Origin: an uncultured Anaerolineales bacterium
Lineage (GTDB): Bacteria > Chloroflexota > Anaerolineae > Epilineales > JAANWY01
Length of the DNA: 64,000 nucleotides
Direction of reading: 5' to 3'
NCBI GenBank assembly: GCA_964532665.1
Contig: CAZHMV010000007.1
Coordinates: 12,132-76,131 of the forward strand
Shown here: positions 14,051 through 64,000 of the stretch, in pieces
Layout of the letters: the number at the start of each line of letters is the position of its first letter
Position numbering within the stretch: position 1 is the first letter of the stretch
Notes under the pieces: generated by a model
What the model saw: the letters and a program-made list of their open reading frames with translations, nothing else
The model's database searches: none
What the model was told of the DNA's origin: nothing
Program-made: the position numbers and the translations under genes

Positions 14051-14157
14051 GAGGCCGAGGAGGAGGAAGGGGGAGGATGGAGAATGGAAAATGGAGGATG
14101 GAAGGGGGAAGGAGGAAAGGGGAAAAAGGGAAAAAGGGAAATGGGAGGCGGAATTCG
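14051..14157 (+). repeat. Approx 105-nt polypurine (G/A-only) tract containing GGGGAAAAAGGGAAAAAGGGAAATGGGAGGCGG
   Basis: Read directly; almost no C/T for over 100 nt. Shares the GGGAAAAAGGG / GGGAAAnGAGGCGG motif with tracts at 37866-37908 and 63941-63992. Confidence 0.8.
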
Positions 14158-14361
14158 TTGTGCCTGTTCCCATTTGCATTCCTGTGCAGCGCCGAAGTGT
14201 CAGTTCTCGGGATTCGACGCAGCGCCCGGTGTCGTGTGTGGCCCACGGGCCGCCATCTCTCGCAACGCCTCCATCACCCGGGCGGGGCCGGCGATTTCAG
14301 CGAAAGTTGCCATCGAATGACTCCTTTCCTTTCCCCATGAATGAATTCATGGTCTGATACC

Positions 14362-14425
14362 CCAAACACGTTAAAACGTGTTTCAACACGTTTCCGAATA
14401 GCAGACACCGAATTCATTCGGTGGG
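14362..14425 (-). terminator. Putative metG 3' stem-loops (CCGAAT...ATTCGG and AAACGTGTT/AACACGTTT alternating repeats followed by T-run on the coding strand)
   Basis: Inverted repeats immediately downstream of the metG stop; contains three alternating copies of AAACACGTT. Confidence 0.35.
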
Positions 14426-14428
14426 CTA

Positions 14429-16213
14429 CTACGCCGGCTGCACCTGCTCTTGGAGTCTTGCCAGTTCCTCATCGGCGACGGAGGGTTCGAGTTTTTTGAA
14501 CAGCGGTTTGGGCTTGCGCAGCGCCTGGCCGGGTGCCAGCTCGCTGGGCTTCCAGTGGTTGGCCGGCCTCTCACCGGCACGATACACCAGCGCGTCGTGG
14601 GTGACGCCATCTTCGTCAAAGGTCTCGATGGCCAGCTCGCCCAGCAGATCGTCATCATAGCCCAGGTAGGTGTGTAGCGCCTGGCAGGTGAAGGGGAGGA
14701 ACGGGTATAGCAACGTCTTCAGGTTGTCGATCACCCTCAGGGCGACGAATACGGCGGTAGCAGCGGCCTCACGATCTTCCTTGATCAGCCGCCACGGGGC
14801 GCGCTCGTCCAGCCAGCGGTTGCCGGCATGAGCCAGCGCAAAGGCTTCGATCAATGCCGTCTTGAACTTGGCCTGGTCCAGCAGTTGCCCGACGGTGTCA
14901 AATGCAGCCTCCACCTGGCTGAGCATGTTCCGGTCAGCTTCGGCGAGGTCGCCCGGGGCCGGCACCCGCCCGTCAAATCGGCTGTGGGCGAAGTTGAGGA
15001 TGCGATTGGCCAGGTTGCCCCAGGTGGCCACCAACTCATCGTTGTTGCGCCGCACGAACTCCGACCACGAGAAGTCGGCGTCCTTGCCCTCGGGAGCGGC
15101 GATGGTCAGGTAGTAGCGCAGCGGGTCCGGGTCGTAGCGCTCCAGGTAGTCGGGCAGCCAGATGGCCCAGTTGCGGCTGGTGGACATGGGCTGGCCTTCC
15201 AGCGTCAGGTGCTCGTTGGCCGCCACGTCGTAAGGCAGGTTGAGTTGCTGCGACGCATCGTCGGTGTACAGTCGCTCGGTGCCCAGGAGCATGGCCGGCC
15301 AGATCACGGAGTGGAACGGGATGTTGTCCTTGCCCACAAAATACGAGCCTTTGGCCGATGGATCGTACCACCAGGCCTTCCACGCATCTGGCTCACCGCG
15401 ATTCCGCGACCATTCGACAGAAGCTGATAAGTAGCCGATAACGGCCTCGAACCAGACGTAGAGCACTTTGTGTTCCCAGCCTTCAACCGGGACCGGGATG
15501 CCCCAGGTCAGGTCGCGGGTGATGGGCCGGCCTTGCAGCCCTTCGCGGATCATGCCCAGCGCCCAGTTGCGGACGTTGGGCCGCCAGTGGTCCTGCTTCT
15601 CGATCCAGGCTTTCAGGCGTTCGCTGAAGGCCGGCAGGTCCAGGAAGTAGTGCTCGGTCTCGCGGACCACGGGTGTGCTGCCATCATTCTTGCTGCGGGG
15701 GTCGATGAGTTCCAGCGCGTCCAGGAGCCGGCCACAGTTGTCGCACTGATCCCCCCGCGCCTCCCCGTAGCCGCAGTGGGGGCAGGTACCCTCGACATCG
15801 CGGTCGGGCAGGAAGCGGTTCTCGATTTCCGAGTACAGTTGCTGCTGGGTTTCACGATACAGGTAGCCGTGTTCCAGCAGCGCCAGAAAAATGTCCTGGG
15901 ACACGCGGTGATGGTTGCGGGTGTCGGTGTGCGTGAACAGGTCGAAGCTGATGCCCAGGCGCTGGAAGTTGTCCAGGAAGGTCTGATGCCACTGCTCGAA
16001 GAACTGCCTGGGGGGTACACCGGCCCGCGTCGCGCCAACGGTGATGGGTGTGCCGTGGGAGTCGCTGCCGGACACCATCAGGACTTTGTTGCCCCGCATG
16101 CGATGGTAGCGCGCGTAGATGTCCGGCGGCAGGTATGCGCCGGCAATGTGACCCACGTGCAGCGGCCCGTTGGCGTACGGCCAGGCAACAAAAATCCCGA
16201 TGTGTTCAGTCAT
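14429..16213 (-). CDS. metG: Methionyl-tRNA synthetase
   Basis: 594 aa; 'AWPYANGPLHVGHIAG' HIGH motif, Zn knuckle 'CPHCGYGEARGDQCDNCG', class I KMSKS-region equivalent, anticodon-binding domain. Confidence 0.9.
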   Translation of the reverse strand: MTEHIGIFVAWPYANGPLHVGHIAGAYLPPDIYARYHRMRGNKVLMVSGSDSHGTPITVGATRAGVPPRQFFEQWHQTFLDNFQRLGISFDLFTHTDTRNHHRVSQDIFLALLEHGYLYRETQQQLYSEIENRFLPDRDVEGTCPHCGYGEARGDQCDNCGRLLDALELIDPRSKNDGSTPVVRETEHYFLDLPAFSERLKAWIEKQDHWRPNVRNWALGMIREGLQGRPITRDLTWGIPVPVEGWEHKVLYVWFEAVIGYLSASVEWSRNRGEPDAWKAWWYDPSAKGSYFVGKDNIPFHSVIWPAMLLGTERLYTDDASQQLNLPYDVAANEHLTLEGQPMSTSRNWAIWLPDYLERYDPDPLRYYLTIAAPEGKDADFSWSEFVRRNNDELVATWGNLANRILNFAHSRFDGRVPAPGDLAEADRNMLSQVEAAFDTVGQLLDQAKFKTALIEAFALAHAGNRWLDERAPWRLIKEDREAAATAVFVALRVIDNLKTLLYPFLPFTCQALHTYLGYDDDLLGELAIETFDEDGVTHDALVYRAGERPANHWKPSELAPGQALRKPKPLFKKLEPSVADEELARLQEQVQPA

Positions 16214-17021
16214 TATAAGCTCCCCTTAGTGCATTCCATCGAACGGTGAGGACATCACGAAAATTGCGCCACGAATCTCTCAGCGGGTTAACCTTGGTTT
16301 CGTTGGAGTAGCGCCATTCCACCGGCACCTCTCGAATCCGATAACCCAGCCGTTGGGCCAGGTAGAGAATCTCGACGTCGAAGGCCGTGACCATGGCGCC
16401 AGCCACGGGCTTGCCGTCGTTGGTGTACAATCTCATGCGGCTGAACAGGTCTCGTGCCACGTCGCGCCGGAAAGCCTTGAACCCACATTGGGTATCCTGA
16501 ATCCCCCGGACCGTCAGCATCTGCACCAGGGTGTTGAACACGCGTCCCATGAGGTGGCGGTAGAACGGCTCGTCGTAGCGCTGCGCGCCGGCCCCCTCGC
16601 GCGATCCGATCACGACGTCGTAGCCCCGGTCGAACCAGGGCAGCAGTCGGTCGATCTCCTCGATGGGGGTGGACAGGTCGGCATCGCTGAAAAGGACGAT
16701 GTCGCCGTCGGCAGCGAGCATGCCGCGCCGCACGGTTGCCCCCTTCCCCTGGTGGGGACCCTCAATGACCTCGACGCGTCGATGCTGCTCGTCGTAGGCT
16801 CGCGCTACGTCCACGGTCCCATCGGTACTGCCGTCGTCAACCACGATTACCCGTGCCGGGTAGTCCTGTTGGTCAAGGTAGTTGAGAATCCGCTCCAACG
16901 TGGCCGGCAGCCGGCGGGCTTCGTTGTAAGCCGGGATGACGATGGTCAGGAACGGGCGATCCTCCTTCGTGCCGGCGCCGGGTCTGGTCAACGCCCGATC
17001 CTCGGTTACCGCTGAATTCAT
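16206..17021 (-). CDS. Family-2 glycosyltransferase, polyprenol/dolichol-phosphate mannose (or glucose) synthase-like (Dpm1/Ppm1-like)
   Basis: 271 aa; 'LTIVIPAYNEARRL', 'VIVVDDGSTDGT', 'DADLSTPIEEIDRLL', the typical GT2 Dpm1-type motifs. Overlaps the metG start by 8 nt. Confidence 0.75.
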   Translation of the reverse strand: MNSAVTEDRALTRPGAGTKEDRPFLTIVIPAYNEARRLPATLERILNYLDQQDYPARVIVVDDGSTDGTVDVARAYDEQHRRVEVIEGPHQGKGATVRRGMLAADGDIVLFSDADLSTPIEEIDRLLPWFDRGYDVVIGSREGAGAQRYDEPFYRHLMGRVFNTLVQMLTVRGIQDTQCGFKAFRRDVARDLFSRMRLYTNDGKPVAGAMVTAFDVEILYLAQRLGYRIREVPVEWRYSNETKVNPLRDSWRNFRDVLTVRWNALRGAYND

Positions 17022-17048
17022 GGGCGTAATGTTACCTCGAACGGTCTG

Positions 17049-18794
17049 TCAGGTCAACTGCAAAGTCACCGTTCCCTTGCTCCCGTCCACCTCAATGAGT
17101 TGACCGTCAACGATGCAATCCAGTACACCGGCCACGCCGACCACCGCCGGCAGCCCATACTCCCGCGCCACCACTGCGCCGTGCGACAGTTGGCCGCCAC
17201 GCTCCATCACCAACCCACTGACCTGCAAGAACAGCGGTGTCCAGGCCGGATCGGTGCTGCTGGTCACCAGGATACTCCCTGACGAGACACGCCGCCACGC
17301 ATCGCTCAAAGCTGTTGGCCCGCCGACCACCACTGCCGGCCCACGCACCCGTCCCGGGCTGGCTGCCAGGCCCGAGAAATGCTGCCCGGCTCTGGCGGTC
17401 GCAGGGCCTGTCTCGTCGAGTGGCGTCTCGCCCCGAAGAAATGCCGGATACGCTGTACCATGCAGGGCCTCGAACTGAGATCGCCGGCCCAGGATGAGAT
17501 TCCGGAGTTCCGGCACTTTCAGCCAGCCTCGAACAACTCCCGTGACCTCGTCCAGCGTCAGGAAGAAGATGTCATCGTCCTGCGCAATCACGCCCTCGGC
17601 GGCCAATGCCTGACCGATGCGCAGGAATGCTTGCCGCTTGGCGTGCATACTTTTCTGCCAGTAAAATCGCTGATCCTCACGCAAGACGGCGTAGCGCTGG
17701 GTGAACCACAGCAGCAGGCGAAAGATCCACCAGCGGATGGAGAAGCTGCCCAACCGCTGGCAAACCCGATGGACAGCAGAGAGCCGGCGTTGCTCCTGGG
17801 TCTGCTCTCGTGCCAGTGGTCCTTCTCCGCCAATGTCCAGCAGGCGTGTGACCGGTGCAAGAACCCCGGTCGGATCATCCGTGTATGCCGCGTGCCAGAG
17901 ATCGAGGCTCGGGGAGCGGTGGCCGTAGTGCGCCAGAAAGTCACGCAGTGCCCGTTGGAACCGCTGGCCGGCCTCTGTCGAACCGAGACCATCGAGGAAT
18001 GCACCGAAGCGTTCGGCCCGCAGGTGATCCAGTGATTCTGCATCCAATCCGGCGGCCCGCTGCGCCAGTCGCCACAACGCGATATCGGTTTCGGTTGACT
18101 TGTTGGGCAGGCCACTGATGAGCGCGGCACTGATCTCGCTGGCATCGCCGGCATCGACCCAGACCGACAACAGGCGTTGCAGCAGCTCATACAGCACATC
18201 GGCGTATGTGAGGCTCCAGCGGTGAAGCCGCAACAAGTCCAGGCTTGCGTCCATCAAGCGGTCGATCTGTTGCAGCAGTGCCGCCGGCCTGTCATCCGCC
18301 TCGATCTCTCGGAGACAGTCAGTAACCTGTCGGTCGAATCGGTGGGTGAATCGATCCCAGACCGCGTAGTTGAACGGATGCCACCCCGGCTCCGACATAA
18401 GGGTGCGGAGGACAGAGTAGAGAAACAGCATCGGATTTGGCGGCGGCACGGTGTGACGGAGCGAGACATCAGCATCGGGGAAATAGCGGCCGGCATCCCG
18501 AGGCACCAACGTGCGGGGGAAGACGCGGTACAACCGTTGGAAGACGCCTACGTTTGTGTAGATGTGACCGCGAAACAGCTTTGTGAGTGGGTATTCCTGT
18601 GGCAGTCGGTAGCCGATGAAGCTTAAAGGTTGGCGGAAGGCCGTGCATTCGACCAGCCGGCGCACGACCGACCATCCCAGGGGTGACACAACGTCCGGGA
18701 AACGCTCGTTAAAGAAGCCGGCGGTCCACAGGTAGTCGTCAGACGGTATGTGGGTCGTAAAGTATTCACCCTGATCGCGTGCGGATAATCGCAT
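17049..18794 (-). CDS. PEP-utilizing-enzyme mobile-domain protein (PEP synthase / rifampicin-phosphotransferase-like C-terminal swivel domain), N-terminal region uncharacterised
   Basis: C-terminal 'GSILVTSSTDPAWTPLFLQVSGLVMERGGQLSHGAVVAREYGLPAVVGV' matches the PEP-utilising phosphohistidine swivel domain. No ATP-grasp N-domain recognised. Confidence 0.6.
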   Translation of the reverse strand: MRLSARDQGEYFTTHIPSDDYLWTAGFFNERFPDVVSPLGWSVVRRLVECTAFRQPLSFIGYRLPQEYPLTKLFRGHIYTNVGVFQRLYRVFPRTLVPRDAGRYFPDADVSLRHTVPPPNPMLFLYSVLRTLMSEPGWHPFNYAVWDRFTHRFDRQVTDCLREIEADDRPAALLQQIDRLMDASLDLLRLHRWSLTYADVLYELLQRLLSVWVDAGDASEISAALISGLPNKSTETDIALWRLAQRAAGLDAESLDHLRAERFGAFLDGLGSTEAGQRFQRALRDFLAHYGHRSPSLDLWHAAYTDDPTGVLAPVTRLLDIGGEGPLAREQTQEQRRLSAVHRVCQRLGSFSIRWWIFRLLLWFTQRYAVLREDQRFYWQKSMHAKRQAFLRIGQALAAEGVIAQDDDIFFLTLDEVTGVVRGWLKVPELRNLILGRRSQFEALHGTAYPAFLRGETPLDETGPATARAGQHFSGLAASPGRVRGPAVVVGGPTALSDAWRRVSSGSILVTSSTDPAWTPLFLQVSGLVMERGGQLSHGAVVAREYGLPAVVGVAGVLDCIVDGQLIEVDGSKGTVTLQLT

Positions 18795-18857
18795 ACTCTA
18801 ATTATCCTACACCTGGGTCCGGCGAGCAACCTGGGCCGCTTTTACCTCAATACGTTC

Positions 18858-24480: not shown

Positions 24481-24492
24481 AGCTGCTCAATG

Positions 24493-27090: not shown

Positions 27091-27098
27091 CAGCCCGG

Positions 27099-27180
27099 GA
27101 CGTGAAACGTGAAACGTAAAACGTGAGAATTCCTACATGCATGGACTGGCCATCACGTTTTATGTTTCACGTTTCACGAG
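27099..27180. repeat. Family A heptamer palindrome: (AACGTGA)x4 - approx 28-nt spacer - (TCACGTT)x4
   Basis: gacgtgaaacgtgaaacgtaaaacgtgag ... catcacgttttatgtttcacgtttcacgag read directly. Same architecture at 40013-40076, 44030-44120, 53394-53470. Confidence 0.85.
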
Positions 27181-35378: not shown

Positions 35379-35489
35379 TGCAATTCCTTTCTCCTCTTTC
35401 CAGCCTTTTTTCGCCGAGGGTGCAGCGCTTCCCAGCGTGTTCGGCGACTTCGACGGTTTCTGTTATCAGTACTTGGGAGAACTCAACGC

Positions 35490-37300: not shown

Positions 37301-38653
37301 CTACAGGTTGGGAATGATGAACCACATCAGGCTGATGAGATCCAGCGCAACCAGGCCAGCAATGAGCAGGCCCAGCGCCGCCGGCTGGAGGACCCGAGGC
37401 ACCAGATTTCGGAACCCCAGCGCGGCAAACAGCGCCATGGGTACCAACGCCGGGAACAGGTAGCGTCCCTGGTGCTGTACAAAGGTGAGATTGTACCACA
37501 CGTAGGTGCCGAATGTCAGGATGATGCTCAAGGCTAGCAACCCCAGTGATGCCCATTGCCGGCTGCTGAGGCGGTCTGGATGCCGGATTGCTCGGGCCAG
37601 AAATAGCACGAAGCCGGCCACGCTCAGGGCAGTCAGAATTAGCAGGCCCGTGTATATGCGTTGGTCCATGAACACGCCCATCCAGCCGAAGACGCCCCAG
37701 AAGCTCTTGAATGTGAAATTCCAGGCCCGGTTCCAGTAGGCTGCCCAGCCCAGGCTCGCGATCCAATCCGCGGTGCGGGGCTGTCCGACCACCACTATGT
37801 CGTGACGTTGCCGTCCGAAGATGTCCAGGCCGCCGTACACCACCGCGTTGCGGACAAACCACCACGCAGACAGGGCGAGGGAAATGGAAAAAAGGAAAAA
37901 CAGGGAAACGAGGCGGGGTTTCGATTGGTCACCCCCCTCCAGCCACCAGTGCCCGACTTCGGCTGCCAGCAGGATCGCAGCCGATGGATAGACGGTGCCT
38001 TTGGTGAGCAGTCCTAGGCCGTACAGGATGCCGCCGCTGATCACAAATCTTCGGCGTGGAATACGGCCCTGCAGCCGCAGCAGGCTCACCAGCAGAATGC
38101 CGGCGATGATCAGTTCGGCCAGCGTGTCGTTGTTGATGCCGGCGCTGATGGCGATGTGCATCGGGATGAAGGCCACCAGAGTTGTCGTCGCCAGGGCCAG
38201 CAGTTCGTCGTTGCCAAAGATCACCTTCACCAACTGGTATGTGGTGTACAGCAGCACGGCGCCAGCGGCGACAGAGATCAGGCGCAGCGCGATGACCTGG
38301 GTGGCCGTGGGCAGGCCGGCGGTTGCCAGGAAGAGCGGCGTGGCCAACAGGTAGTACAGGGGCGGCTGCCAGGCCTCGTAGGCGATGCTGTCGATGGACA
38401 TCGACGGCGGGAACCTCGCGTGCTTGATTTCCTCCAGGTACCCGGCGGGGTAGTCGCCGGGTTCCAGGACGGGTAGCCGGCCCGTGTGGGCCAGATCGGC
38501 GATGTAGTTGTAGTGGGCCGGCTCATCGGGCACCTGCCATGCCGGCGTGTCAACCGCGTACGCGATTCCCAGGGCGATGTAGATGGCGATGATGAGTGTC
38601 AGCAGCGGGTGAGCAGTGCGTCTCATAGGTGGGGTGTCCTCACAGCACCTCAA
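37301..38653 (-). CDS. Family-39 glycosyltransferase (PMT/ArnT-like, polyprenol-phosphate-sugar dependent GT-C)
   Basis: 450 aa, approx 12 TM; first periplasmic loop 'WQVPDEPAHYNY' (DE..H motif of PMT/ArnT family). Confidence 0.7.
   Translation of the reverse strand: MRCCEDTPPMRRTAHPLLTLIIAIYIALGIAYAVDTPAWQVPDEPAHYNYIADLAHTGRLPVLEPGDYPAGYLEEIKHARFPPSMSIDSIAYEAWQPPLYYLLATPLFLATAGLPTATQVIALRLISVAAGAVLLYTTYQLVKVIFGNDELLALATTTLVAFIPMHIAISAGINNDTLAELIIAGILLVSLLRLQGRIPRRRFVISGGILYGLGLLTKGTVYPSAAILLAAEVGHWWLEGGDQSKPRLVSLFFLFSISLALSAWWFVRNAVVYGGLDIFGRQRHDIVVVGQPRTADWIASLGWAAYWNRAWNFTFKSFWGVFGWMGVFMDQRIYTGLLILTALSVAGFVLFLARAIRHPDRLSSRQWASLGLLALSIILTFGTYVWYNLTFVQHQGRYLFPALVPMALFAALGFRNLVPRVLQPAALGLLIAGLVALDLISLMWFIIPNL
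37866..37908 (+). repeat. Purine-rich tract GAGGGAAATGGAAAAAAGGAAAAACAGGGAAACGAGGCGG inside the GT39 gene (encodes SLFFLFSISLA on minus strand)
   Basis: Shares the GGGAAA..AAAAAGG..GGGAAAnGAGGCGG skeleton with 14120-14157. Confidence 0.55.
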
Positions 38654-40012: not shown

Positions 40013-40076
40013 CGCGTAAAATGTGAAACGTGAAACGTGAGGATTCGACATCAAGTACAGTCATCACGTTTCACGC
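40013..40076. repeat. Family A heptamer palindrome (AATGTGA AACGTGA AACGTGA - spacer - TCACGTT TCACGCT)
   Basis: Read directly; lies next to a Family B element in the same 290-nt gap. Confidence 0.8.
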
Positions 40077-40119
40077 TCTGGCTGCTCCACTGAGTGGATT
40101 CAGCCAAGTGCCGTCGCTG

Positions 40120-44029: not shown

Positions 44030-44120
44030 ACGACGTACGACGTGAAACGTGAAACGTGAAACGTGGATACGACTCCAGGTGTTCATAGGCTATCACGTTT
44101 CACGCTTCACGTTTTACGCC
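44030..44120. repeat. Family A heptamer palindrome (ACGTGAA x3-4 - 30-nt spacer - TCACGTT x3-4)
   Basis: cgacgtgaaacgtgaaacgtgaaacgtgg ... tatcacgtttcacgcttcacgttttacgcc read directly between rpmF and fabD. Confidence 0.85.
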
Positions 44121-46186: not shown

Positions 46187-48838
46187 TCAGCTTAAGTCGC
46201 CTTCACCATGCCAGAACTCGTTAACGCGTTCGACCAGTAAGGCGTTTTCCGATGCAGACAGGTCGGGGTCGCGCCGAAAGATCTCCATGGCCTCTGCCCG
46301 GGCCGTCTCCAGGATGTGGACATCGCTGAGTTTGGCTGCTTTCAAATCCGGCAGGCCACTCTGGCGTGTGCCGAAGAACTCGCCAGGGCCGCGCAGTTTG
46401 AGGTCTTCTTCGGCCAGGCGGAAACCGTCCTGGGTGCTCTCCACAACGTCGAGCCGGGCCTGGGCACTCCGCGAGGGTGAGTCGGCCAGCAGCAGGCAGT
46501 AGGATTGGTGCTCACCCCGGCCGACGCGGCCCCGGAACTGGTGAAGTTGGGCCAGCCCAAACCGGTCCGCTCCCTCAATGACCATCACCGTGGCATTGGG
46601 GACGTCGATGCCGACCTCGACGACGGATGTGGATACCAGGATGTCCAGCTCGCCGGCCCGGAACTGTGCCATGACCGCTTCTTTTTCCGCATTTTTCAGC
46701 CGGCCGTGCATCAGGCCCAGCCTCAGGTTCGGGAAGACTTCTTTTTGCAGTCGCTCGTATTCCTCGGTGGCGGCCTTGGCCGCGATCTTGTCCGATGCCT
46801 CGATGAGTGGGCAGATGATGAAAGCTTGCCGGCCCTTTTCGATTTGTGACCGGACGAACTGGTACGCTCGCTCGCGCTCCCGGGGGAGCACCTTGCGTGT
46901 GCGGATGGTTTGCCGGCCTGGTGGCAGCTCGTCAATCACCGAGATGTCCAGGTCGCCGTACACCGTCAGCGCCAGCGTGCGGGGGATTGGCGTGGCGGTC
47001 ATGACCAGCACGTGCGGGGCATAACCCCTCGATACGCCGGCGCCTGCTCGGGACAGGCCCTTCTGCCGCAACGCAGCCCGCTGGCCAACTCCGAATCGAT
47101 GCTGCTCGTCGATGACGACGAAGGCCAGGTCCTTGAATTCCACACCCTCCTGGATCAGAGCGTGGGTCCCGATGACAATGTCAACCTCGCCGGACGCAAT
47201 TTCGTCATAGATGGCGTCCTTTTCCGATTTCGTCAGGCTACCTGTCAGTAGCCGGACTGTGAATCGGGAGTTGCGAATTGCGAATTGCGAAGGGCGTTTG
47301 TCAGTCGTCGTTTGTTGTTCGTCGGCGAGGGAAGCGAGCAGGTTCGTCACATTGCGATAGTGCTGCTCGGCCAGAATCTCCGTGGGTGCCATCATCGCTG
47401 CCTGAGCGCGGTTGGCTACGGTCATGAGCATGGCGACGACGGCCACGACCGTTTTGCCGGATCCGACGTCACCTTGCAGGAGCCGGCTCATGGGGCGCTT
47501 GCGTGTCAGGTCCCGCAGGATGTCGTTCAACACGCGGCCCTGGGCTCGGGTCAGCTTGAACGGAAGCGTCTCCAGAATGGATTGCAGCATGTCGCGCGGG
47601 ATGTCCATCGGCCGGCCGGTTTCTTGCTGCCAGATACGCCGCTGCCGGAGCACGCCAAGCTGGATGAGCAAGAATTCGTCGAAGCTGAGCCGGCGTCGTG
47701 CCTCCTTTAAGGTGTCCCAGTTGTCAGGGAAGTGGATCTGGTACATCGCTTCGTCGATGGGAAGCAGGTTTTCTCGCTGTCGGACGTGCTCGGGGAGGTA
47801 CTCCTGGAGGGCGCCGGCCCATCCATCGACAACGCGGCTCATGAGGCGGCGCATCCAGCGCGCGCTGATGCCTTTGGTCAACGGGTATACGGGCACCAGC
47901 CGGGCGGTGTGTACCAGCTTCTGTTCCAGCGGCTCCCATTCGGGTGCCTGGAAGGTCAGCCGGCCCAGGTACTTCTCGACTCGCCCGCTCAGGACGATCT
48001 TGCGGCCGGGCCGCAGTTGCCGGACAAGGTACGGTTGATTGAACCAGGTGGCCTCGATGGTCCCGGTTGCGTCGGAGAAAATCGCGGTGGTGATGCTCTG
48101 TCCGCTCCGCGTGCGGCGGTTGTTGCATTCCCAGACGGTGCCGACAATCGTCACTTCCTCGCCATATTCGAGTTGGTTTATGGTCTTGAGTGCGCTGAAG
48201 TCGTCGTAGCGCCGGGGGAAGAGGTATAACAGGTCTTCCACGGTTCGCACGCCCAGCCGGCCCAGTCGCCGACGATAGGTGTCGCTGATTCCTTGCAGGT
48301 TTTCCACAGGCGTGTTGAGGTCCAGATCGGCTCGCGGTTGCCGGCGCCGCCCGCGCGGGGTGCTCCGTGCTCTGTCCTGAGCTTGTTGCAGAGCTTGCTG
48401 AGGATCAGTCTGATCGACCTGCTCTTGAACCTGCGCGGGCGGAGGAGGTGTCGGCTGCTGCGGTTGGGCGCGTGGTGGCCCCGTCCTCCTCGCCTGACGA
48501 TCTCTGGCTTTTGCATCTGTCTGGCGCGGAGCGCCGTCTGAAGAGTCCGAACTCTCCTCAGCAATCTGCAACTGCAGTACGCTGAGGTTGTGCAGTTGTT
48601 TCAAAGCTTCTCGCACGGTCGATTCGCGGCTCTCAATGTCCTTGTGCTCGTAGCCGCGCAGCAGCTCGCTGATGATGCGCACCTGACGTTGGGCGCGATC
48701 GTCGTCGATAGTCTCCAGGGCTTCCTGTTCCCAGCGGGCCACGAAGCGCCTGAGCCCACCGATCACGGCTCGATCTCGAAACCCCGTGTCTCGCTCCAGG
48801 TCCAGGACCTTGTTGAGTTTTTCTAATGCCGGCAACAT
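46187..48838 (-). CDS. recG: ATP-dependent DNA helicase RecG (long N-terminal extension)
   Basis: 883 aa; wedge domain, 'LLQGDVGSGKTVVA' Walker A, 'VIDEQHRFGV' DEQH box, 'TATPIPRTL', C-terminal TRG motif region. Contains an in-frame heptamer-repeat insertion (see repeat 47263-47330). Confidence 0.9.
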   Translation of the reverse strand: MLPALEKLNKVLDLERDTGFRDRAVIGGLRRFVARWEQEALETIDDDRAQRQVRIISELLRGYEHKDIESRESTVREALKQLHNLSVLQLQIAEESSDSSDGAPRQTDAKARDRQARRTGPPRAQPQQPTPPPPAQVQEQVDQTDPQQALQQAQDRARSTPRGRRRQPRADLDLNTPVENLQGISDTYRRRLGRLGVRTVEDLLYLFPRRYDDFSALKTINQLEYGEEVTIVGTVWECNNRRTRSGQSITTAIFSDATGTIEATWFNQPYLVRQLRPGRKIVLSGRVEKYLGRLTFQAPEWEPLEQKLVHTARLVPVYPLTKGISARWMRRLMSRVVDGWAGALQEYLPEHVRQRENLLPIDEAMYQIHFPDNWDTLKEARRRLSFDEFLLIQLGVLRQRRIWQQETGRPMDIPRDMLQSILETLPFKLTRAQGRVLNDILRDLTRKRPMSRLLQGDVGSGKTVVAVVAMLMTVANRAQAAMMAPTEILAEQHYRNVTNLLASLADEQQTTTDKRPSQFAIRNSRFTVRLLTGSLTKSEKDAIYDEIASGEVDIVIGTHALIQEGVEFKDLAFVVIDEQHRFGVGQRAALRQKGLSRAGAGVSRGYAPHVLVMTATPIPRTLALTVYGDLDISVIDELPPGRQTIRTRKVLPRERERAYQFVRSQIEKGRQAFIICPLIEASDKIAAKAATEEYERLQKEVFPNLRLGLMHGRLKNAEKEAVMAQFRAGELDILVSTSVVEVGIDVPNATVMVIEGADRFGLAQLHQFRGRVGRGEHQSYCLLLADSPSRSAQARLDVVESTQDGFRLAEEDLKLRGPGEFFGTRQSGLPDLKAAKLSDVHILETARAEAMEIFRRDPDLSASENALLVERVNEFWHGEGDLS
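47263..47330. repeat. Tandem heptamers TTGCGAA x3 followed by TCGTCGTTTGTTGTTCGTCG, lying in frame inside recG
   Basis: gttgcgaattgcgaattgcgaagggcgtttgtcagtcgtcgtttgttgttcgtcgg read directly; encodes ...DEQQTTTDKRPSQFAIRNSRF... between helicase motifs I and II, where E. coli RecG has a shorter loop (from memory). Confidence 0.5.
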
Positions 48839-49709: not shown

Positions 49710-49715
49710 GGTCGG

Positions 49716-49792
49716 TGAACAGTGATCAGTGATCAGTGACCAGTGATCAGTAACCAGTAATCAGGATCTGGTCACTGATCACTGGTCACTCG
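49716..49792. repeat. Family C heptamer palindrome: (CAGTGAT/CAGTGAC/CAGTAAC)x6 then (TCACTGA/TCACTGG/TCACTCG)x3, filling the whole yloV-degV gap
   Basis: gaacagtgatcagtgatcagtgaccagtgatcagtaaccagtaatcaggatctggtcactgatcactggtcactcgg read directly. Confidence 0.85.
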
Positions 49793-53393: not shown

Positions 53394-53470
53394 GCGTGAA
53401 ACGTAAAACGTGAAACGTGAGGATGGGTCAATGAAGAAACTATCACGTTTCACGCTTCACGTTTCACGCC
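53394..53470. repeat. Family A heptamer palindrome (GCGTGAA ACGTAAA ACGTGAA ACGTGAG - spacer - TCACGTT TCACGCT TCACGTT TCACGCC)
   Basis: Read directly between the Zn-peptidase gene and rlmN. Confidence 0.85.
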
Positions 53471-56898: not shown

Positions 56899-56981
56899 GC
56901 CGGATATTATAGGTCAAGCTGGCCGGTCTGGCAATTTCGGCCTCCTTGCAAGGCTACATAATATGTGCTACAATACTGGCT

Positions 56982-58117: not shown

Positions 58118-59194
58118 ATGGACAACATATCGGAGCCGCCCCAGCGCTCAGGCGGTATTGACTTCGATCAAAGTGACGTCCGTGCTGAGGACCTCGTCGG
58201 ACGTGACAAGTTCGAATTCAACCTGCCCGAGATACCGCGTAAGGGTTGCTATGCCCAGTTATCCAAGAACATTAAGTTCGTTGTTTCTCTTGGCGTGCTG
58301 CTGCTCTTGATCTACGCTGTTTTCCAGCAGTTGAACCGGCCGAGTGTGTCGGAGCAGACGCCGACGCCGACGGCTGTGGAAACGGCGACGCCAACTGGAA
58401 CGCCAGAACCTTTAACAACGCCAACAGTAGAGGCCCAGGGGCCGTTGCCGGGGACACAGACACCGGAGCCCCCGTTCGGGCGAGCTACGTCGGTGGTCCG
58501 GCCAGAGACTCGGACGCCCGTGGTGGTTACGGCTACCTTGACGCCTGTCGTAGCCGCCTCGCCCACGACGCGACGTGTTGTCGCCACGGTCACGCCTGGA
58601 ACCATTGGGCCGTCTACGCCGGTCGTGCGGCCGCCGACGCCAACGCCACGACGGACCCCGACACCGGTGCCCACCACAGCGGTTCCGAGCCCGCGTCCGC
58701 TGCCGACGGTGACGCCGCGGCCACCAACGCCGACGCCGAATCCGTGCCTGTCGGCGGCTGTCCGTCTTGGGCCTGTTGCCAGGCTTGTGACGGAAGGGGA
58801 TACATTCACCGCCAGCGTGCTCATCTCTTGTGCGGTGAACCTGGCTGGCTACCAGATTGAATTGCGCTTTGATCCGGCTGTCGTGGTCGTCCGGGGTGTG
58901 GATAACGGCGGGTTCCTGGGCAGTGCCGGCGGGTCGGTGTTCGCCCCGGATCCAGCGATGGATAACAGTGCTGGCATAGCAACCATCAGTGCGATTGTGC
59001 TGCGGCCTGGACCGTATCCGAGTGGCTCGGGCACTCTGGCTTCCTTCAGTTTGAAGGCTGTTGGTCCGGGATCTACAGATCTGGACGTGGGTGTGAGCCT
59101 GTCGGACGTAAACGGAGAGTCGATACCGGTCAGTGTCACCGATGGCGCTGTCGTCGTCCAGCCGCAGGCCACGGCTGTGCCGAGTGAGCCGTAG
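58118..59194 (+). CDS. Membrane-anchored protein with long Pro/Thr-rich linker and C-terminal cohesin-like domain
   Basis: 358 aa; TM 'FVVSLGVLLLLIYAVF'; TPTPT linker; 'GDTFTASVLISCAVNLAGYQIELRFDPAVVVV' cohesin-type beta sandwich. Confidence 0.6.
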   Translation: MDNISEPPQRSGGIDFDQSDVRAEDLVGRDKFEFNLPEIPRKGCYAQLSKNIKFVVSLGVLLLLIYAVFQQLNRPSVSEQTPTPTAVETATPTGTPEPLTTPTVEAQGPLPGTQTPEPPFGRATSVVRPETRTPVVVTATLTPVVAASPTTRRVVATVTPGTIGPSTPVVRPPTPTPRRTPTPVPTTAVPSPRPLPTVTPRPPTPTPNPCLSAAVRLGPVARLVTEGDTFTASVLISCAVNLAGYQIELRFDPAVVVVRGVDNGGFLGSAGGSVFAPDPAMDNSAGIATISAIVLRPGPYPSGSGTLASFSLKAVGPGSTDLDVGVSLSDVNGESIPVSVTDGAVVVQPQATAVPSEP

Positions 59195-59239
59195 TCGATC
59201 TGACTGTAGATTGCCCATGGCCGACTGCGAGTCTCAGAT

Positions 59240-59262
59240 GGGGATCTGACGATCCCTTTTGA
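59240..59262 (+). terminator. Rho-independent terminator GGGGATC-tgac-GATCCC-TTTT
   Basis: Read directly after the cohesin-like gene. Confidence 0.5.
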
Positions 59263-59315
59263 ACGAGTTTTGGGGTCTACTGAGTTTGCCGGCGGTCGGC
59301 GATTGGGTGTTGGAG

Positions 59316-60005
59316 ATGTGTATGTACTTGTTGAATCTTGGATTGGTACCGTACGACGAAGGTTTGAAGCTGCAACATCGACTGGTTGCGGCACGGAAAG
59401 CCGGCCAACTGGATGACATCCTGATCCTGCTGGAACACCCACCGGTCATCACGCTGGGCCGGCAGGCGGATGAGACAAACATCATCGCCGCTCCCGAGTT
59501 CCTCGACCAACTGGGCGTTCAGGTTCGGCGGGTCGAGCGGGGCGGCGATGTCACCTACCACGGCCCTGGACAACTCATGGGCTACCCGATCCTGAACCTG
59601 CGCAATCATCGCAAAGATGTTGGTTGGTACATTCGCTCGTTGCAGAAAGCCCTGGTCGGTGCGCTGGCGGACTTCGGGATCGAGGCGGAAGCGCGCACTG
59701 GTCGCGACACCGGCGTGTGGGTGGGCAATGACAAAATTGTTGCCATCGGCGCTCGCATCGAGGAGTGGGTATCTTTCCACGGCTTCGCATTGTACGTCGA
59801 TCCCATCATGTCCCACTTCGACCTCATCGTGCCGTGTGGGCTGCGTGACCGGGGCGTCATCGGAATGCGGCAGGTCGTTGGCGAATCCGTCGATATGGAG
59901 GCTGTCCGACGGGCTGTTGCGAAGCATTTCGCGATTGTGTTCGATGTTGACCTGGACGATGTGACTCTAGCCGGACTTGAGTTCCCAGAACCTGCGTCAG
60001 CCTGA
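59316..60005 (+). CDS. lipB: Lipoyl(octanoyl) transferase
   Basis: 'LLEHPPVITLGR', 'RGGDVTYHGPGQL', 'KIVAIGARI' LipB blocks. Confidence 0.9.
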   Translation: MCMYLLNLGLVPYDEGLKLQHRLVAARKAGQLDDILILLEHPPVITLGRQADETNIIAAPEFLDQLGVQVRRVERGGDVTYHGPGQLMGYPILNLRNHRKDVGWYIRSLQKALVGALADFGIEAEARTGRDTGVWVGNDKIVAIGARIEEWVSFHGFALYVDPIMSHFDLIVPCGLRDRGVIGMRQVVGESVDMEAVRRAVAKHFAIVFDVDLDDVTLAGLEFPEPASA

Positions 60006-60023
60006 CGCCTGGCGACTGCATCT

Positions 60024-60674
60024 GTGGCTAACATCATGTCAAACGAAACTCCATTCGTTTTTCGTAAGGTCGTTGTCGGTCCCTGGCCGATGAATACCTT
60101 CGTTTTGATTGACCCATCCGGGGGGAGCAGTATCGTCGTCGATCCCGGCGCCGATGCCAACGCCATCCTGGCGGCCACGTCTGGCCTGCCTGTCTACAAG
60201 ATTCTGTTGACCCATGCCCATCCCGATCACATTGGCGCATTGTCAGCCGTGGCGGGAGCGACGGGAGCGCCTGTGGCGGCCCATGCGGACAGCGCCGGCC
60301 TGCTCGCGGTCCCGCCGGATGATGAACTCCACGACGGCGATGTGGTGCGCCTGGGCGTACGCGAGATTCGCGTGATCGAAACCCCGGGCCACGCGCCTGG
60401 TCACCTGAGTTTCCTGATCGGAAGCGACCTGATTGGTGGCGATGTGCTGTTCCCTGGCGGCCCAGGCCACACCGACACGCCCCAGGACTTCCAGCAGATT
60501 CTCGAGACGATCACGCAGAAGTTGTTTGCCTTGCCGGGTGAGACAGTTGTCCATCCAGGTCACGGCGAGTCTGTGACGATCGGTCAGGCGAAGGCGGAGT
60601 ACGAGAAGTTCGCGGAGCGGCAGATGCCGGCGGATCTCTGCGGCGACGTGACGTGGGAACCCAGTGAACAGTGA
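60024..60674 (+). CDS. MBL-fold metallo-hydrolase (glyoxalase-II-like)
   Basis: 'LTHAHPDHIGA' HxHxDH, 'ETPGHAPGH'. Confidence 0.85.
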   Translation: MANIMSNETPFVFRKVVVGPWPMNTFVLIDPSGGSSIVVDPGADANAILAATSGLPVYKILLTHAHPDHIGALSAVAGATGAPVAAHADSAGLLAVPPDDELHDGDVVRLGVREIRVIETPGHAPGHLSFLIGSDLIGGDVLFPGGPGHTDTPQDFQQILETITQKLFALPGETVVHPGHGESVTIGQAKAEYEKFAERQMPADLCGDVTWEPSEQ

Positions 60675-60748
60675 ACAGTGAACAGTGATCAGTAAACAGT
60701 GAACAGTTGACTGATGACTGATCACTGTTCACTGATCACTTTGGTATC
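60661..60748. repeat. Family C heptamer palindrome (CAGTGAA x3, CAGTGAT, CAGTAAA, CAGTGAA, CAGTTGA | CTGATGA CTGATCA CTGTTCA CTGATCA), near-loopless cruciform; first units encode the C-terminal ...SEQ* of the MBL gene
   Basis: Read directly; ends 9 nt before the DUF123 gene start. Confidence 0.85.
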
Positions 60749-60756
60749 TGGATTGC

Positions 60757-61218
60757 ATGGACATTACCCTGTCGGATATTGAGCGTGGAGCGCCGGGCAC
60801 TTATGTCCTTGTGATGTTCCTGGACTCGCCGACGCGCATTGTCGTTGGTGCGCTTGGCCCGCTTGAATTCGACGCCGGCTATTATCTGTACGTCGGGAGT
60901 GCGCTGAACGGCCTGGCGGGCCGGCTGCGTCGCCATTGTCGGGTTGACAGCAAGAAACTCCGCTGGCACATCGACTACCTGCGTGCGCGCGCCACGCTGG
61001 TTGAGGTCTGGTGGACAGTTTCTGCCGAACGCCTGGAGTGTGAGTGGGCTGTGGCCGTGCGTGGGTTGCCCGGTGTGACTGAGCCGGTGGCCGGCTTCGG
61101 GGCCTCGGACTGCCGCTGCTCCAGCCACCTGTTTCACCTCGTAGCCAAACCCTCTTTCGATGACTTCGCCGCTCTCCAGGCCAACCGTGACATCGCTTCC
61201 ACAAGTCGCGGTTCCTGA
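60757..61218 (+). CDS. GIY-YIG nuclease superfamily protein (DUF123)
   Basis: 153 aa; 'GTYVLVMFL', 'GYYLYVGSALNGLAGRLRRH', 'RWHIDYL' of DUF123/Uri-superfamily endonucleases. Confidence 0.7.
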   Translation: MDITLSDIERGAPGTYVLVMFLDSPTRIVVGALGPLEFDAGYYLYVGSALNGLAGRLRRHCRVDSKKLRWHIDYLRARATLVEVWWTVSAERLECEWAVAVRGLPGVTEPVAGFGASDCRCSSHLFHLVAKPSFDDFAALQANRDIASTSRGS

Positions 61219-61372
61219 GAACTCATACTCCCACCAACGCTTCATTCCAATCCTGCCTCCTCCGCCCTTTGGCCTTTAATATTCAACACTTTTGTGCTAG
61301 AATAGTCCCCATGACTATACAAGCTCAGCTTCAGACGTTGCTTGACAGGTTCATCTGGATGGGACGCTAGCC

Positions 61373-61636
61373 ATGGAGCACAGGTCTGCACCTTCCAACC
61401 GTCGGCAGCGTTTTCTGCGCAGATTCGCTGTTGGGCTCACAATCTATGCGGTGCTAATCGCCGGCTACATTTTCGTACTGCGGCTATTTAGAGAGCCGTT
61501 GCTGGGGCTGTACAACACCCGCATAGTCGTGTACGCATTGGTTGCCCTGGTTCTCATTGTAGCACAGGCGCTTGTACTTGAATCTATCACCATGTTCCTC
61601 GCCGAGCATCTGGGTATCGTGACGCACGAGGAATGA
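61373..61636 (+). CDS. Small two-TM membrane protein, hypothetical
   Basis: 87 aa; coupled (ATGA overlap) to the TauE gene. Confidence 0.45.
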   Translation: MEHRSAPSNRRQRFLRRFAVGLTIYAVLIAGYIFVLRLFREPLLGLYNTRIVVYALVALVLIVAQALVLESITMFLAEHLGIVTHEE

Positions 61637-62532
61637 TGGGCATGGGCTTTCCCATCTCAGGTATTACAGTTAACCCCGTGTATCTGGTCGGCGTTGGCTT
61701 TTTAGTCGGCATCCTGGCCGGGTTTTTCGGCGTAGGTGGCGGCTTTCTGACCGGGCCGATGCTGCTGATTCTCGGTATGCCAGGCCACATGGTCCCGGGC
61801 ACAGACCTGGCGTACATGACGGGCAAATCGATGGTTGCGGCCCGACGACACCGCGCGCTGGGTCACGTTGACGTAAAATTGGGTGCTATCATGGTGACCG
61901 GTACTGTCATCGGCGTCGAGTTGGGGGCCCAGCTTATCGAGGCTCTGAAGCGTGTTGGCAGCGTAGAGGTAACACTTGGTTTAACATACATCATCACGTT
62001 GCTAAGCGTCTCGGGCTTCGTGGCATGGGAAAGTTTCCGAGCGATGCAGATGACAGGCACCGAGGCCATTGATGTGGCAGATGCCGTTAGCTTTCGAGGT
62101 TTCACAAAGCGCGTACAGAGCATTAATCTTCCACCGATGATCTCGCTGCCAGGCTCCGGCGTCGAATCGATCTCCTTTTGGGCGGTTTTCGGTGTGGGCA
62201 TAGTGACCGGGTTCCTGGCCGGCTTCCTGGGCGTGGGCGGCGGTTTCATTCGTATGCCGGCATTGGTGTACATCGTCGGCGTGCCGACCCACATCGCTGT
62301 TGGGACGGACCTCTTCGAGATTATCATCTCGTCCGCTTATGGGGCGTTGAGCCACGGGGTGAAGGGGAATGTAGATATCCTGGTAGCGTTGGTGATGCAC
62401 ACAGGCGCAGTGGTCGGTGCGCAGATCGGCGCAGTCTCTACGCAGTACGTCGGTGGTCCCAGGATTCGGCTGGCCTTCTCGGTGTTACCGCTAATCGGCG
62501 TGGCGTTGGTCATCATGAGACTCTTCGCGTGA
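61633..62532 (+). CDS. TauE/SafE family sulfite/anion exporter (DUF81)
   Basis: 299 aa; duplicated 4-TM halves each with 'GFFGVGGGF' motif. Confidence 0.8.
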   Translation: MMGMGFPISGITVNPVYLVGVGFLVGILAGFFGVGGGFLTGPMLLILGMPGHMVPGTDLAYMTGKSMVAARRHRALGHVDVKLGAIMVTGTVIGVELGAQLIEALKRVGSVEVTLGLTYIITLLSVSGFVAWESFRAMQMTGTEAIDVADAVSFRGFTKRVQSINLPPMISLPGSGVESISFWAVFGVGIVTGFLAGFLGVGGGFIRMPALVYIVGVPTHIAVGTDLFEIIISSAYGALSHGVKGNVDILVALVMHTGAVVGAQIGAVSTQYVGGPRIRLAFSVLPLIGVALVIMRLFA

Positions 62533-62551
62533 GTTCAATGATCGTCGTAAG

Positions 62552-63397
62552 GTGATTCAGATGCACATACTTGTGGCTACTGACGGCCTGGAACATGCTC
62601 GAGCGGCTGTGCGATTTGCCAGCCAGCTCGCGGCTCAGGCCGGTGCCAGGGTAACTGTACTCGGTGTGGCCGAGCAGGTGGACCGAGATGGTGTGGCCCG
62701 TCGGGCTATCGCGGATGCAGGCCGGCTGCTAGGCGAGCGCGGGATTCAATACACAACCAAACTGCGTCATGGCTACCCGGCCGAGCAGGTTTTGCAGGAA
62801 ACCGAACAGGGTGAATATGACCTGATCGTCATTGGTGCCCGAGGGCGCTCTCGCCTGACGCGCTTTTTGCTGGGTTCGGTGTCATTCCGCATCCTTCAGC
62901 ATGCAGTCATCCCCGTTCTGATTGTGCGTCAGACACGACCACGTATCAGGAAGATCCTGGTTGCCACGGGTGGACACCCGGAGAGCGAAGGAACGATGCG
63001 CTATGGTGCACAACTGGCCGGCGCGCTGGGTGCTATGGAAACACTGTTGCACGTCACGAATCCGGTCCCCCGGATGTACACCGGATTGGAGGAGATGGAC
63101 GAAACACTGCGCGAGTTGATGCAGTCGGATACTCGGGAAGGCCGGTCGTTGCGTGACGGAGCCCGGATCATGGAGGACGAGGAGGTAGAGGGCCGCATCG
63201 AATTGCGCCACGGAGTGGTGGAAGAGGAGATCATCCACGAAGCGGCTCAAGGTGACTACGATCTCATCGTCCTGGGCTCGTCCCTGTCGGCTCGTGCGAT
63301 CGACTGGCTGGCATTGGGAAACATTACCCGTCGCATCATCGACCGAACGCCGCGCCCCATTCTGGTCGTGCCTGGCCGGAAGCAGCAGAAGGGGTAG
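62552..63397 (+). CDS. Tandem universal stress protein (UspA x2)
   Basis: 281 aa; two 'ILVATDG...G.S...G.V.......PVLVV' Usp modules. Confidence 0.8.
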   Translation: MIQMHILVATDGLEHARAAVRFASQLAAQAGARVTVLGVAEQVDRDGVARRAIADAGRLLGERGIQYTTKLRHGYPAEQVLQETEQGEYDLIVIGARGRSRLTRFLLGSVSFRILQHAVIPVLIVRQTRPRIRKILVATGGHPESEGTMRYGAQLAGALGAMETLLHVTNPVPRMYTGLEEMDETLRELMQSDTREGRSLRDGARIMEDEEVEGRIELRHGVVEEEIIHEAAQGDYDLIVLGSSLSARAIDWLALGNITRRIIDRTPRPILVVPGRKQQKG

Positions 63398-63405
63398 TGT
63401 AATCA

Positions 63406-64000
63406 TGCTCATTATACACGGTACAGTTGTCACCTTTGGGAGTGACTGGCGGATCATCGAAGACGGCGCTCTCCACATCGACGCGGATCGCATCACCGAC
63501 GTCGGCACGACAACCGAGTTGACGGTTCGATATCCCGATGCCGAGATGCTCGACGCTGCCGGCAAGCTGGTGATGCCCGGCAATATCTGCGCCCACACGC
63601 ACTTCTACGGCACGTTCGCCCGCGGTCTGACCATTCCAGGTCCCCCGATGAAAAATTTCCCCGAGATTTTGGCCCGGCTGTGGTGGCCCCTGGACCGCAG
63701 CCTGGACGAAGAGGCGATTCGCTACAGCGCCCTGGTCCCTCTGGCCGACGCGATCCGCCATGGCACCACGACACTGATTGACCACCACGCCAGCAACTGC
63801 GCCATCGACGGCTCCCTGGACATCATCGCCGAAGCGGTGGGGCAGGCCGGCCTGCGAGCGTGCCTGTGCTACGAGGTGACAGACCGGGATGGGCCGGAGG
63901 TGGCGGAGGCGGGGATACGGGAGAATGAGCGGTTTATTCGGAGGGAAAAAGGGAAAAAGGGGAGAAGGGGAGAAGGGAAAAAGGAACTTCTGGCCGGCAC
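63406..64000 (+). CDS. Amidohydrolase-family (SsnA/chlorohydrolase-like) protein, 3' truncated by window edge, with Lys/Gly-rich insertion encoded by a polypurine tract
   Basis: 'MLIIHGTVVTFG', 'GKLVMPGNICAHTHFY' metal-binding HxH. Not in ORF track because it runs off the window. Confidence 0.65.
63941..63992 (+). repeat. Polypurine tract GGAGGGAAAAAGGGAAAAAGGGGAGAAGGGGAGAAGGGAAAAAGGAAC lying in frame in the amidohydrolase gene (encodes EKGKKGRRGEGKKE)
   Basis: Read directly; shares GGGAAAAAGGGAAAAAGGG with 14120-14145. Confidence 0.7.

Follow-up and report, generated by a model that had tools for sequence, protein, structure and literature searches.

The short tandemly repeated repetitive (STRR) sequences of cyanobacteria are heptamer repeats comparable to the arrays described here, which lie in a 64,000-nt stretch of DNA from an uncultured Anaerolineales bacterium (the whole stretch is called the window). 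Other dispersed heptameric simple sequence repeats (SSRs) are GGGAATC in Xanthomonas and GGGGA(C/T)T in Nostoc (PMC4692102), and TAACTGA in Beggiatoaceae, Cyanobacteria and Bacteroidetes (PMC4679880). Repeats within open reading frames (ORFs) are known from Borgs, where the lengths of all in-ORF units are divisible by three (PMC9879509). The units described here (GGGAAAAA, GGAGAAT, ACGTGAA, GTGATCA, CAGTGAA and TTGCGAA) match none of the families STRR1-3, GGGAATC, GGGGAYT and TAACTGA, to which they are similar only in kind, and the literature searched yielded no description of heptanucleotide or STRR-type repeats in Chloroflexi or Anaerolineae.

An initial annotation of the window drew attention to three purine-rich tracts with a common core: T1 at the 5′ end of a glycosyltransferase gene, T2 in the gene of a membrane protein and T3 in ssnA, the gene of a putative aminohydrolase. 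Two of them form a family. T1 and T3, which are related, consist of degenerate tandem copies of an octamer, GGGAAAAA, and of GGAGAAT-type heptamers; T2 stands apart. Similar arrays are dispersed in this Anaerolineae lineage and in many other bacteria. Those of T1 and T3 probably are slippage-type arrays that have been filtered into permissive positions of the encoded proteins.

Purine-rich tracts of the window

The window has a G+C content of 60.7% and belongs to the 116,930-bp metagenome contig JGI 3300038380 Ga0434945_000106, in which the record position equals 104803 minus the position in the window. The nearest relatives of its proteins are annotated as coming from Anaerolineae (Chloroflexota) metagenome-assembled genomes (MAGs). 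When purine or pyrimidine had to make up at least 87% of 30 consecutive nucleotides, five tracts were detected, T1 (14048-14154), T2 (37868-37918), T3 (63936-63989) and two pyrimidine tracts (9111-9149 and 35383-35415), compared with 0.045 expected from 200 second-order Markov simulations. Three tracts fall within predicted coding sequences, where 0.135 are expected when codons are permuted within genes, the coding sequence prediction being crude. Purine-rich stretches are present at the three loci first noted, with purine fractions of 0.90 (14051-14157), 0.88 (37866-37908) and 0.90 (63941-63992), and the longest uninterrupted purine runs reach 42 nt in T1, 15 nt in T2 and 47 nt in T3. All three tracts, and not two of them as had been stated, are inside ORFs. 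T1 and T2 belong to minus-strand genes and are read as pyrimidine-rich Phe, Leu, Ser and Pro codons.

The bias in composition is real, and in T1 and T3 it takes the form of periodic tandem repeats with periods of 7 and 8, which makes these two more than compositional tracts. Tandem Repeats Finder (TRF) detected periods of 7 (GGAGAAT) and 8 (AAAAGGGA) in T1 and a period of 8 in T3 (AGGGAAAA, 5.4 copies, 88% matches). Both are short tandem repeat arrays with units of 7-8 nt, in which at most two to three identical units follow one another; long uninterrupted runs are absent. T2 gave only 2.4 copies at the minimum score and is not a tandem array. The 19-mer core GGGAAAAAGGGAAAAAGGG occurs exactly in T1 and T3; with up to three mismatches it has six overlapping matches in the window, all in these two tracts, for 0.01 expected. 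T2 has no match even at three mismatches, and the core assigned to the three tracts is thus common to two. The end GGGAAA(T/C)G(G)GAGGCGG, also said to be shared, finds no support other than a short resemblance between T1 and T2. By blastn, T2 showed no similarity to T1, to T3 or to anything but itself.

The units found within genes (GGGAAAAA, GGGGAGAA, GGAGAAT, GGAAAAT, GGAGGAT and TTGCGAA) are free of stop codons in all frames of both strands, as had been anticipated for such tracts. The intergenic heptamers of the window (ACGTGAA, GTGATCA and CAGTGAA) carry TGA on one or both strands. Here and below, the assignment of arrays of the window as intergenic depends on a crude gene map.

The array in ssnA

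The 5′ part of ssnA occupies positions 63405-64000 of the plus strand and the gene runs past the end of the window; the full SsnA protein (455 aa) was read from the parent contig (L119 7773-9140). T3 (63936-63989, plus strand) is a degenerate (GGGAAAAA/GGGGAGAA) octamer array that lies in frame in the gene and encodes EKGKKGRRGEGKKE. The translation given to it at the outset, REKGKKGRRGEGKKE, was correct. SsnA matches the NCBIfam SsnA models as far as residue 187, where the tract starts. In a MAFFT alignment of 120 SsnA homologues, the commonest state of the loop between RFI(K/R)R and L(A/L)A(G/T)TFGLHA is the absence of any insert, T3 being missing from most homologues at its alignment position, and a minority of lineages bear inserts of their own.

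Relatives at 80-91% identity have K/G/R/E inserts of differing lengths, namely VKGKKGKREKGKKD in a relative at 91%, VKGEKGKKGKRGKGVG at 85% and QKREKGKKGKRREEAEAGGS at 80%, with only VKREEGDS or VKREKGGG in two relatives at 86%. In other lineages the loop accommodates unrelated inserts (e.g. ..ISNLQSPISFPSPSPS..), which are themselves translations of simple repeats. From these alignments, the SsnA loop appears to be a recurrent landing site for repeats.

The orthologues also differ in their DNA. The insert-free orthologue L121 (86% identical) has a purine seed, AAAAGGGAAGAAGGGGA, its DNA reading GTGAAAAGGGAAGAAGGGGATAGC; orthologue L041 has a perfect (GGGAAAAA)x4 array, and the arrays are degenerate, and unequal in length, in L120, in L122 and in the window. 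This speaks for growth of T3 in place. Both array length and unit content vary among these five orthologues. In a crude neighbour-joining tree calculated with the loop excluded, the array-bearing SsnA sequences are non-monophyletic and form at least two groups with insert-free sequences nested between them, which indicates repeated gain or loss.

The location of the insert in the protein was examined in an AlphaFold2 model built on 56 homologues, with a mean predicted local distance difference test (pLDDT) score of 92.6 and a predicted template modelling (pTM) score of 0.93. The weakest region of the model, residues 181-195, corresponds to the tract (block pLDDT 65, <50 at residues 189-191) and sits between helix 164-187 and strand 196-198; no other stretch of SsnA drops below a pLDDT of 50. 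Collectively, the alignment of homologues, the DNA of orthologues and the modelled loop bear out the early suggestion of a lineage-specific insertion in the conserved SsnA fold: T3 is an in-frame, lineage-specific and fast-changing repeat insertion at a permissive loop.

As a separate observation, the Chloroflexota SsnA homologues P0040, P0074, P0079, P0113 and P0119 have long unrelated inserts at the loop (e.g. ..SSLNPISNLQSPISFPSPSPS..). Inserts of the ..SSLNPISNLQSPISFPSPSPS..-type resemble translated CCAATCT-type heptamer arrays.

The array at the 5′ end of the glycosyltransferase gene

The gene of the MptA/B-family (GT87-like, GT-C) glycosyltransferase is on the minus strand (12704-14173). 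Its likely start is the ATG at 14173, which has AGGA 6 nt upstream; an alternative ATG is found at 14179. In minus-strand reading, the pyrimidine codons of the repeat array proper (14069-14157) specify ..SHFPFSLFPLSSFPLPSSIFHSPSSP. On the plus strand the array comprises GGAGAAT/GGAAAAT/GGAGGAT heptamers (14072-14103), followed by GGAAGGG-type units and by AAAAGGGA octamers (14116-14141). The left end of the tract as first noted (14048-14068, minus strand) is outside the array and codes in the ordinary way for FLLLGLA, with which transmembrane helix 1 begins, relatives having L-I-L-L-G-F-A or similar at this position. Neither this glycosyltransferase nor the membrane protein of T2 has a Pfam match itself, and their family labels come from a weak NCBIfam match and from precomputed Pfam domains of homologues.

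Gene callers differ on the start of the protein, choosing the internal Met at 14047 in one assembly (447 aa) and the ATG at 14173 in two (489 aa). Since a pyrimidine tract cannot hold ATG, GTG or TTG, the ATGs at 14173 and 14179 are the only in-frame canonical starts upstream. The product from the ATG at 14173 begins MGTGTTNSASHFPFSLFPLSSFPLPSSIFHSPSSPFLLLGLAMLACFAGMTRL. Homologues with annotated N-termini have 10-35 residues ahead of the conserved (G/A)ML(A)CF, including hydrophobic residues that match FLLLGLA, and the T1 region corresponds to a variable N-terminal extension among them. In the AlphaFold2 model of the glycosyltransferase (mean pLDDT 91.4, built on 51 homologues), helix 34-50 is predicted with a pLDDT of 90-98 and begins 9 residues upstream of the internal Met; residues 1-30 have a pLDDT of about 50-56. 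The glycosyltransferase probably starts upstream of the tract, and the model suggests that T1 is most likely translated, as a disordered N-terminal tail preceding transmembrane helix 1.

Five relatives each bear a heptamer array just upstream of the conserved MLACFAGMTRL, with differing units and orientations. The four orthologous 5′ regions listed here differ in their arrays. L123 has GGAGATT x4 on the sense strand, which would encode MKGRLEIRDWRL, and L126 has CTAATCTCCAATCTCC... on the sense strand; L125 combines a purine arm that contains the start codon with a pyrimidine arm, and contig L124 starts within a (CCAATAT)n array. By blastn, the orthologous site in L125 and L126 can be aligned with the heptamers of T1 at 90-91%. 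Comparison of these regions points to the 5′ site of the glycosyltransferase gene as an old repeat hot spot with turnover.

In L125 the purine arm with its start codon is predicted to pair with the pyrimidine arm in a hairpin (z = -4.07). This favours the idea that the tracts are kept for a nucleic-acid structure or signal, be it H-DNA (triplex), a G-quadruplex in DNA or mRNA, or a CCUCC-rich leader in T1 that pairs with Shine-Dalgarno-like purines and tunes translation. The potential for H-DNA suggested in the initial annotation stands approximately at the level of motifs (mirror arms of 12-14 nt with at most one mismatch, spacers of 1-5 nt, pure runs of 42 and 47 nt), and its formation is a prediction from these letters. 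The initial annotation missed the fit of T1 and T3 to the canonical G-quadruplex motif: two of the six G3+N1-7 x4 motifs of the window are at 14119-14145 and 63943-63970 on the plus strand, with folding predicted only. G-rich heptamer arrays of Xanthomonas and Nostoc form G-quadruplexes in vitro (PMC4692102). Conservation for structure is nevertheless unlikely, because the predicted fold of the window's own T1 mRNA region is no better than that of shuffled sequences (z = +0.73) and because neither sequence nor length is conserved among orthologues, which disfavours a constrained structure. With the same z value, pairing of T1 with the upstream purine-rich Shine-Dalgarno region was dropped as a demonstrated structure.

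The position of T1 also evokes phase-variable contingency loci, in which the gain or loss of a single unit by slippage would change the reading frame, so that the glycosyltransferase, which has a cell-surface function, or SsnA would alternate between on and off. The 5′ end of a gene for a surface structure is the classical position for phase-variation switches, and T1 occupies this position in a surface glycosyltransferase gene. Unit lengths that are not multiples of three, and the differences in array length and composition between related species, agree with such switching, and SSRs are enriched near N-termini (PMC4692102). Nonetheless, phase variation is quite unlikely here. The arrays are degenerate, with too few identical consecutive units (at most two to three), and no length heterogeneity of the kind sought as its sign was seen: at the consensus level, where minority variants are possible, four independent assemblies of different samples agree base for base on T1, and three contigs of different origin encode one and the same SsnA protein.

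Upstream of the glycosyltransferase gene, a 37-aa ORF on the minus strand (14200-14313, MATFAEIAGPARVMEALREMAA..) has its match at the C-terminal end of a gene of the Uma2 family (PF05685). This gene is intact in L123 and L126, and is a mere remnant here between metG and the glycosyltransferase gene.

The tract coding for a membrane helix

T2 (37868-37918, minus strand) codes for the transmembrane helix PRLVSLFFLFSISLALS of a GT-C (DUF2142/PMT_2-like) membrane protein, the homologues of which carry DUF2142 and PMT_2 domains. The helix has the same length in about 70 aligned homologues, which disposes of the view of T2 as an insertion related to the others. Its codons are more pyrimidine-rich than the codon usage of the window predicts (synonymous resampling, P about 1.5e-4, uncorrected for the choice of region). 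A 43-nt stretch of T2 is identical in an orthologue of 82% overall identity. A hidden element behind this nucleotide conservation was considered and rejected, given a longer identical run of 51 nt elsewhere in the same gene. Thus, T2 appears from its sequence and that of its homologues to be ordinary coding sequence with a mild codon bias, and neither an insertion nor a member of the repeat family. In annotation, tracts of this type are to be read as ordinary coding for membrane helices.

Chance composition, i.e. ordinary purine- or pyrimidine-rich coding sequence, applies to T2, where a conserved transmembrane helix requires Phe, Leu and Ser codons that are inherently pyrimidine-rich and where the identity with the orthologue is outdone within the same gene. 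As an account of the tracts in general it is scarcely credible, being refuted for T1 and T3 by their excess over Markov simulations and codon permutations, by the occurrence of the 19-mer (6 versus 0.01 expected) and by the TRF periodicity.

As to codon choice, the helix of T2 (37869-37911) favours TTT, CTT, ATT and TCC codons well beyond the prediction from the codon usage of the window, and its thymine runs T5 and T6 are conserved in an orthologue.

Copies in other genomes

T1 and T3 belong to a wider population of 7-8-nt arrays, which had escaped the initial annotation. The exact 19-mer core is present in at least 114 stretches of a collection of species-representative genomes, from many phyla. 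Two related Anaerolineae MAGs account for several of the matches listed, and many come from Pyrinomonadaceae, Saprospiraceae, Deinococcales and other groups. The G+C content of the matches listed ranges from 0.28 to 0.72, and about 18% of them have a tract of the opposite type within 80 nt. A metagenome scan for (GGARAAT)3 returned at least 120 loci (G+C 0.28-0.70), two of the matches listed having a complementary arm nearby. Therefore, this unit is widespread.

Further copies, which had been predicted, do exist at non-orthologous loci of related genomes. In the related Anaerolineae MAGs, (GGGAAAAA)n arrays are mostly intergenic, often consist of a purine arm followed by a pyrimidine arm (an inverted pair) and are located beside other heptamer arrays. 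Within a gene, the Ardenticatenaceae MAG JAOSJS010000001.1 (L095 1213-1300) has a 124-nt purine tract on the sense strand, in frame in the sequence of a LanM-like lanthipeptide synthetase. The tract falls in the linker between the DUF4135 and the LanC-like domains and encodes ..GEGGKGKREKGEKDKGDEGRQGTGEKGEGKEAERE...

Such dispersion raises the question of a small mobile or dispersed element (MITE- or REP-like, for miniature inverted-repeat transposable element and repetitive extragenic palindrome) with a GGGAAAAAGGG core, copies of which would insert into genes. An identical core of 19-25 nt at non-orthologous loci of the window and the related MAGs, the inverted pairing of some copies and an 89% identity over 44 nt of T1 with a non-orthologous locus in L082 (blastn) are in keeping with an element of this kind. 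On the other hand, conserved ends, terminal inverted repeats and target-site duplications are lacking, and blastn similarity is confined to the periodic core. A purine seed is already present at the exact site in the insert-free ssnA orthologue, and the arrays of the other orthologues differ from each other in length and in their GGGAAAAA-type units. Moreover, the unit occurs in many unrelated phyla over a G+C range of 0.28 to 0.72 among the matches listed. The discrete inserted element of the initial annotation is very improbable on these grounds.

Other arrays in the window

A further in-frame array, (TTGCGAA)x3, is located in recG (46187-48838) at 47271-47291 on the minus strand and is stop-free on both strands. 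It encodes QFAIRNS, within an insertion of roughly 20 aa relative to Thermotoga maritima RecG (1GM5), between helicase motifs Ia and Ib. It represents the same phenomenon as T1 and T3, with a different unit. As a side observation, RecG of the window is extended at its N-terminus by about 170 residues, among which Q, P and R abound.

The pyrimidine tract at 9111-9149 on the plus strand is purine-rich on the sense strand of a minus-strand gene of the subtilase family, and encodes RQEEERERKGGDQR in the N-terminal tail of the protein, before its membrane anchor. Two other pyrimidine runs of the plus strand (35383-35415 and 14321-14336) correspond to long Shine-Dalgarno regions, rich in purines, that belong to genes on the minus strand (GGAAAGAGGAGAAAGGAAT and GGGGAAAGGAAAGGAG).

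Intergenic arrays take the form of hairpins or inverted pairs. Four copies of an (ACGTGAA)n ... (TCACGTT)n hairpin (27100-27178, 40015-40085, 44040-44119 and 53395-53469) have stems made of (ACGTGAA)x3-4 then (TCACGTT)x3-4, with a loop of 23-27 nt. One copy is between convergent gene ends, and these hairpins may be terminators or mRNA-stabilising structures. A search of the whole window against Rfam at gathering thresholds gave no matches. Arrays with units of 7-10 nt form inverted pairs at 49715-49790, 60662-60740, 7447-7530 and 14365-14394; their units are GTGATCA x7.9 with CTGGTCA, CAGTGAA x6.6 with ACTGATC, the GGATGGGC-type and AACACGTTTC. Contig L004 ends within the array at 14365-14394, which indicates that such arrays break assemblies.

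Origin and persistence of the arrays

The explanation that we consider probable for T1 and T3, slippage-type arrays filtered by what the proteins tolerate, can be put as follows. Replication slippage or unequal exchange, acting on purine-rich seeds, would make arrays lengthen, shorten and decay where they stand, and the arrays would have no specific function. Their persistence in genes would depend on three conditions, namely a unit that is stop-free on the sense strand, a net length that preserves the reading frame, and a position where the protein tolerates a low-complexity peptide. Reading of the purine strand would lead to Lys/Gly/Arg/Glu segments, as in the SsnA loop, the LanM linker, the subtilase tail and the putative N-terminus of L123. 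Reading of the pyrimidine strand would lead to Phe/Pro/Ser/Leu segments, placed only beside a membrane helix, as in the tail of the MptA/B-type glycosyltransferase. With few cases at hand, we propose as a hypothesis that the strand read sets the type of segment, a charged loop or a hydrophobic and proline-rich tail.

Several points weigh against this explanation. A slip of a single 7-8-nt unit shifts the frame, so that simple slippage alone cannot give in-frame arrays. Orthologues differ in length by values other than whole units (e.g. 18 nt between L121 and L041), which calls for additional indels or selection. Purely local seeding is insufficient to account for the presence of the GGGAAAAA unit in several phyla, at coding as well as intergenic loci that have no relation to each other. 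As for T1, the encoded tail is devoid of Lys and Arg, an unusual trait at the cytoplasmic N-terminus of GT-C proteins. Moreover, one gene caller placed the start of the glycosyltransferase after the array. Finally, this explanation does not account for the synonymous pyrimidine bias of T2.

Given the recurrence of units, it is tempting to propose that an active process in Anaerolineae seeds and spreads 7-8-nt units (GGGAAAAA, GGAGAAT, CCAATCT and others) chromosome-wide, like STRR and other heptamer systems, and that stop-free units enter conserved proteins time and again at identical permissive sites (the loop of SsnA, the N-terminus of the MptA/B-type glycosyltransferase and the Ia-Ib loop of RecG). 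This proposal is possible, though doubtful. If true, the process would be a steady source of disordered segments and N-terminal tails, and possibly of hairpins that control translation.

This one small region illustrates how non-triplet short repeats can become fixed within conserved bacterial genes, with an outcome that would be determined by the strand read. It also points to an Anaerolineae lineage rich in heptamer and octamer arrays, which break assemblies and confuse the calling of start codons.

Comparison with known systems

Like phase-variable contingency loci, the window has non-triplet units where the gene of a surface glycosyltransferase begins; it differs from them by the degeneracy of the arrays and by the absence of length polymorphism among four assemblies. 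The prokaryotic low-complexity regions that arise from short-repeat dynamics (PMC6821194; bioRxiv 10.1101/2022.09.23.509281) are among the closest known systems. In both cases, lineage-specific biased segments are found in loops, linkers or termini of conserved proteins and their length varies among close relatives. Here, however, the units of 7-8 nt are no codon multiples, and the same units also occur in intergenic regions as hairpins.

The published heptamer SSRs (PMC4692102; PMC4679880) likewise have 7-nt units in many dispersed arrays near gene ends, some of them intragenic, with strong variation between close relatives, G-runs capable of forming G-quadruplexes and contigs that break within arrays. 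They differ from the present arrays by their units and by their phylum (here Chloroflexota, Anaerolineae), and an 8-nt purine unit is present here in addition. Finally, tandem repeats of Borgs (PMC9879509) share with T1 and T3 the creation of disordered segments by nucleotide repeats within ORFs, the absence of stop codons, independent origins, recurrence at the same place in homologues and a frequent location in membrane or extracellular proteins. The main difference is that the units described here are degenerate and 7-8 nt long, with a reading frame kept solely by the net length of the array, and that their host is a bacterial chromosome.

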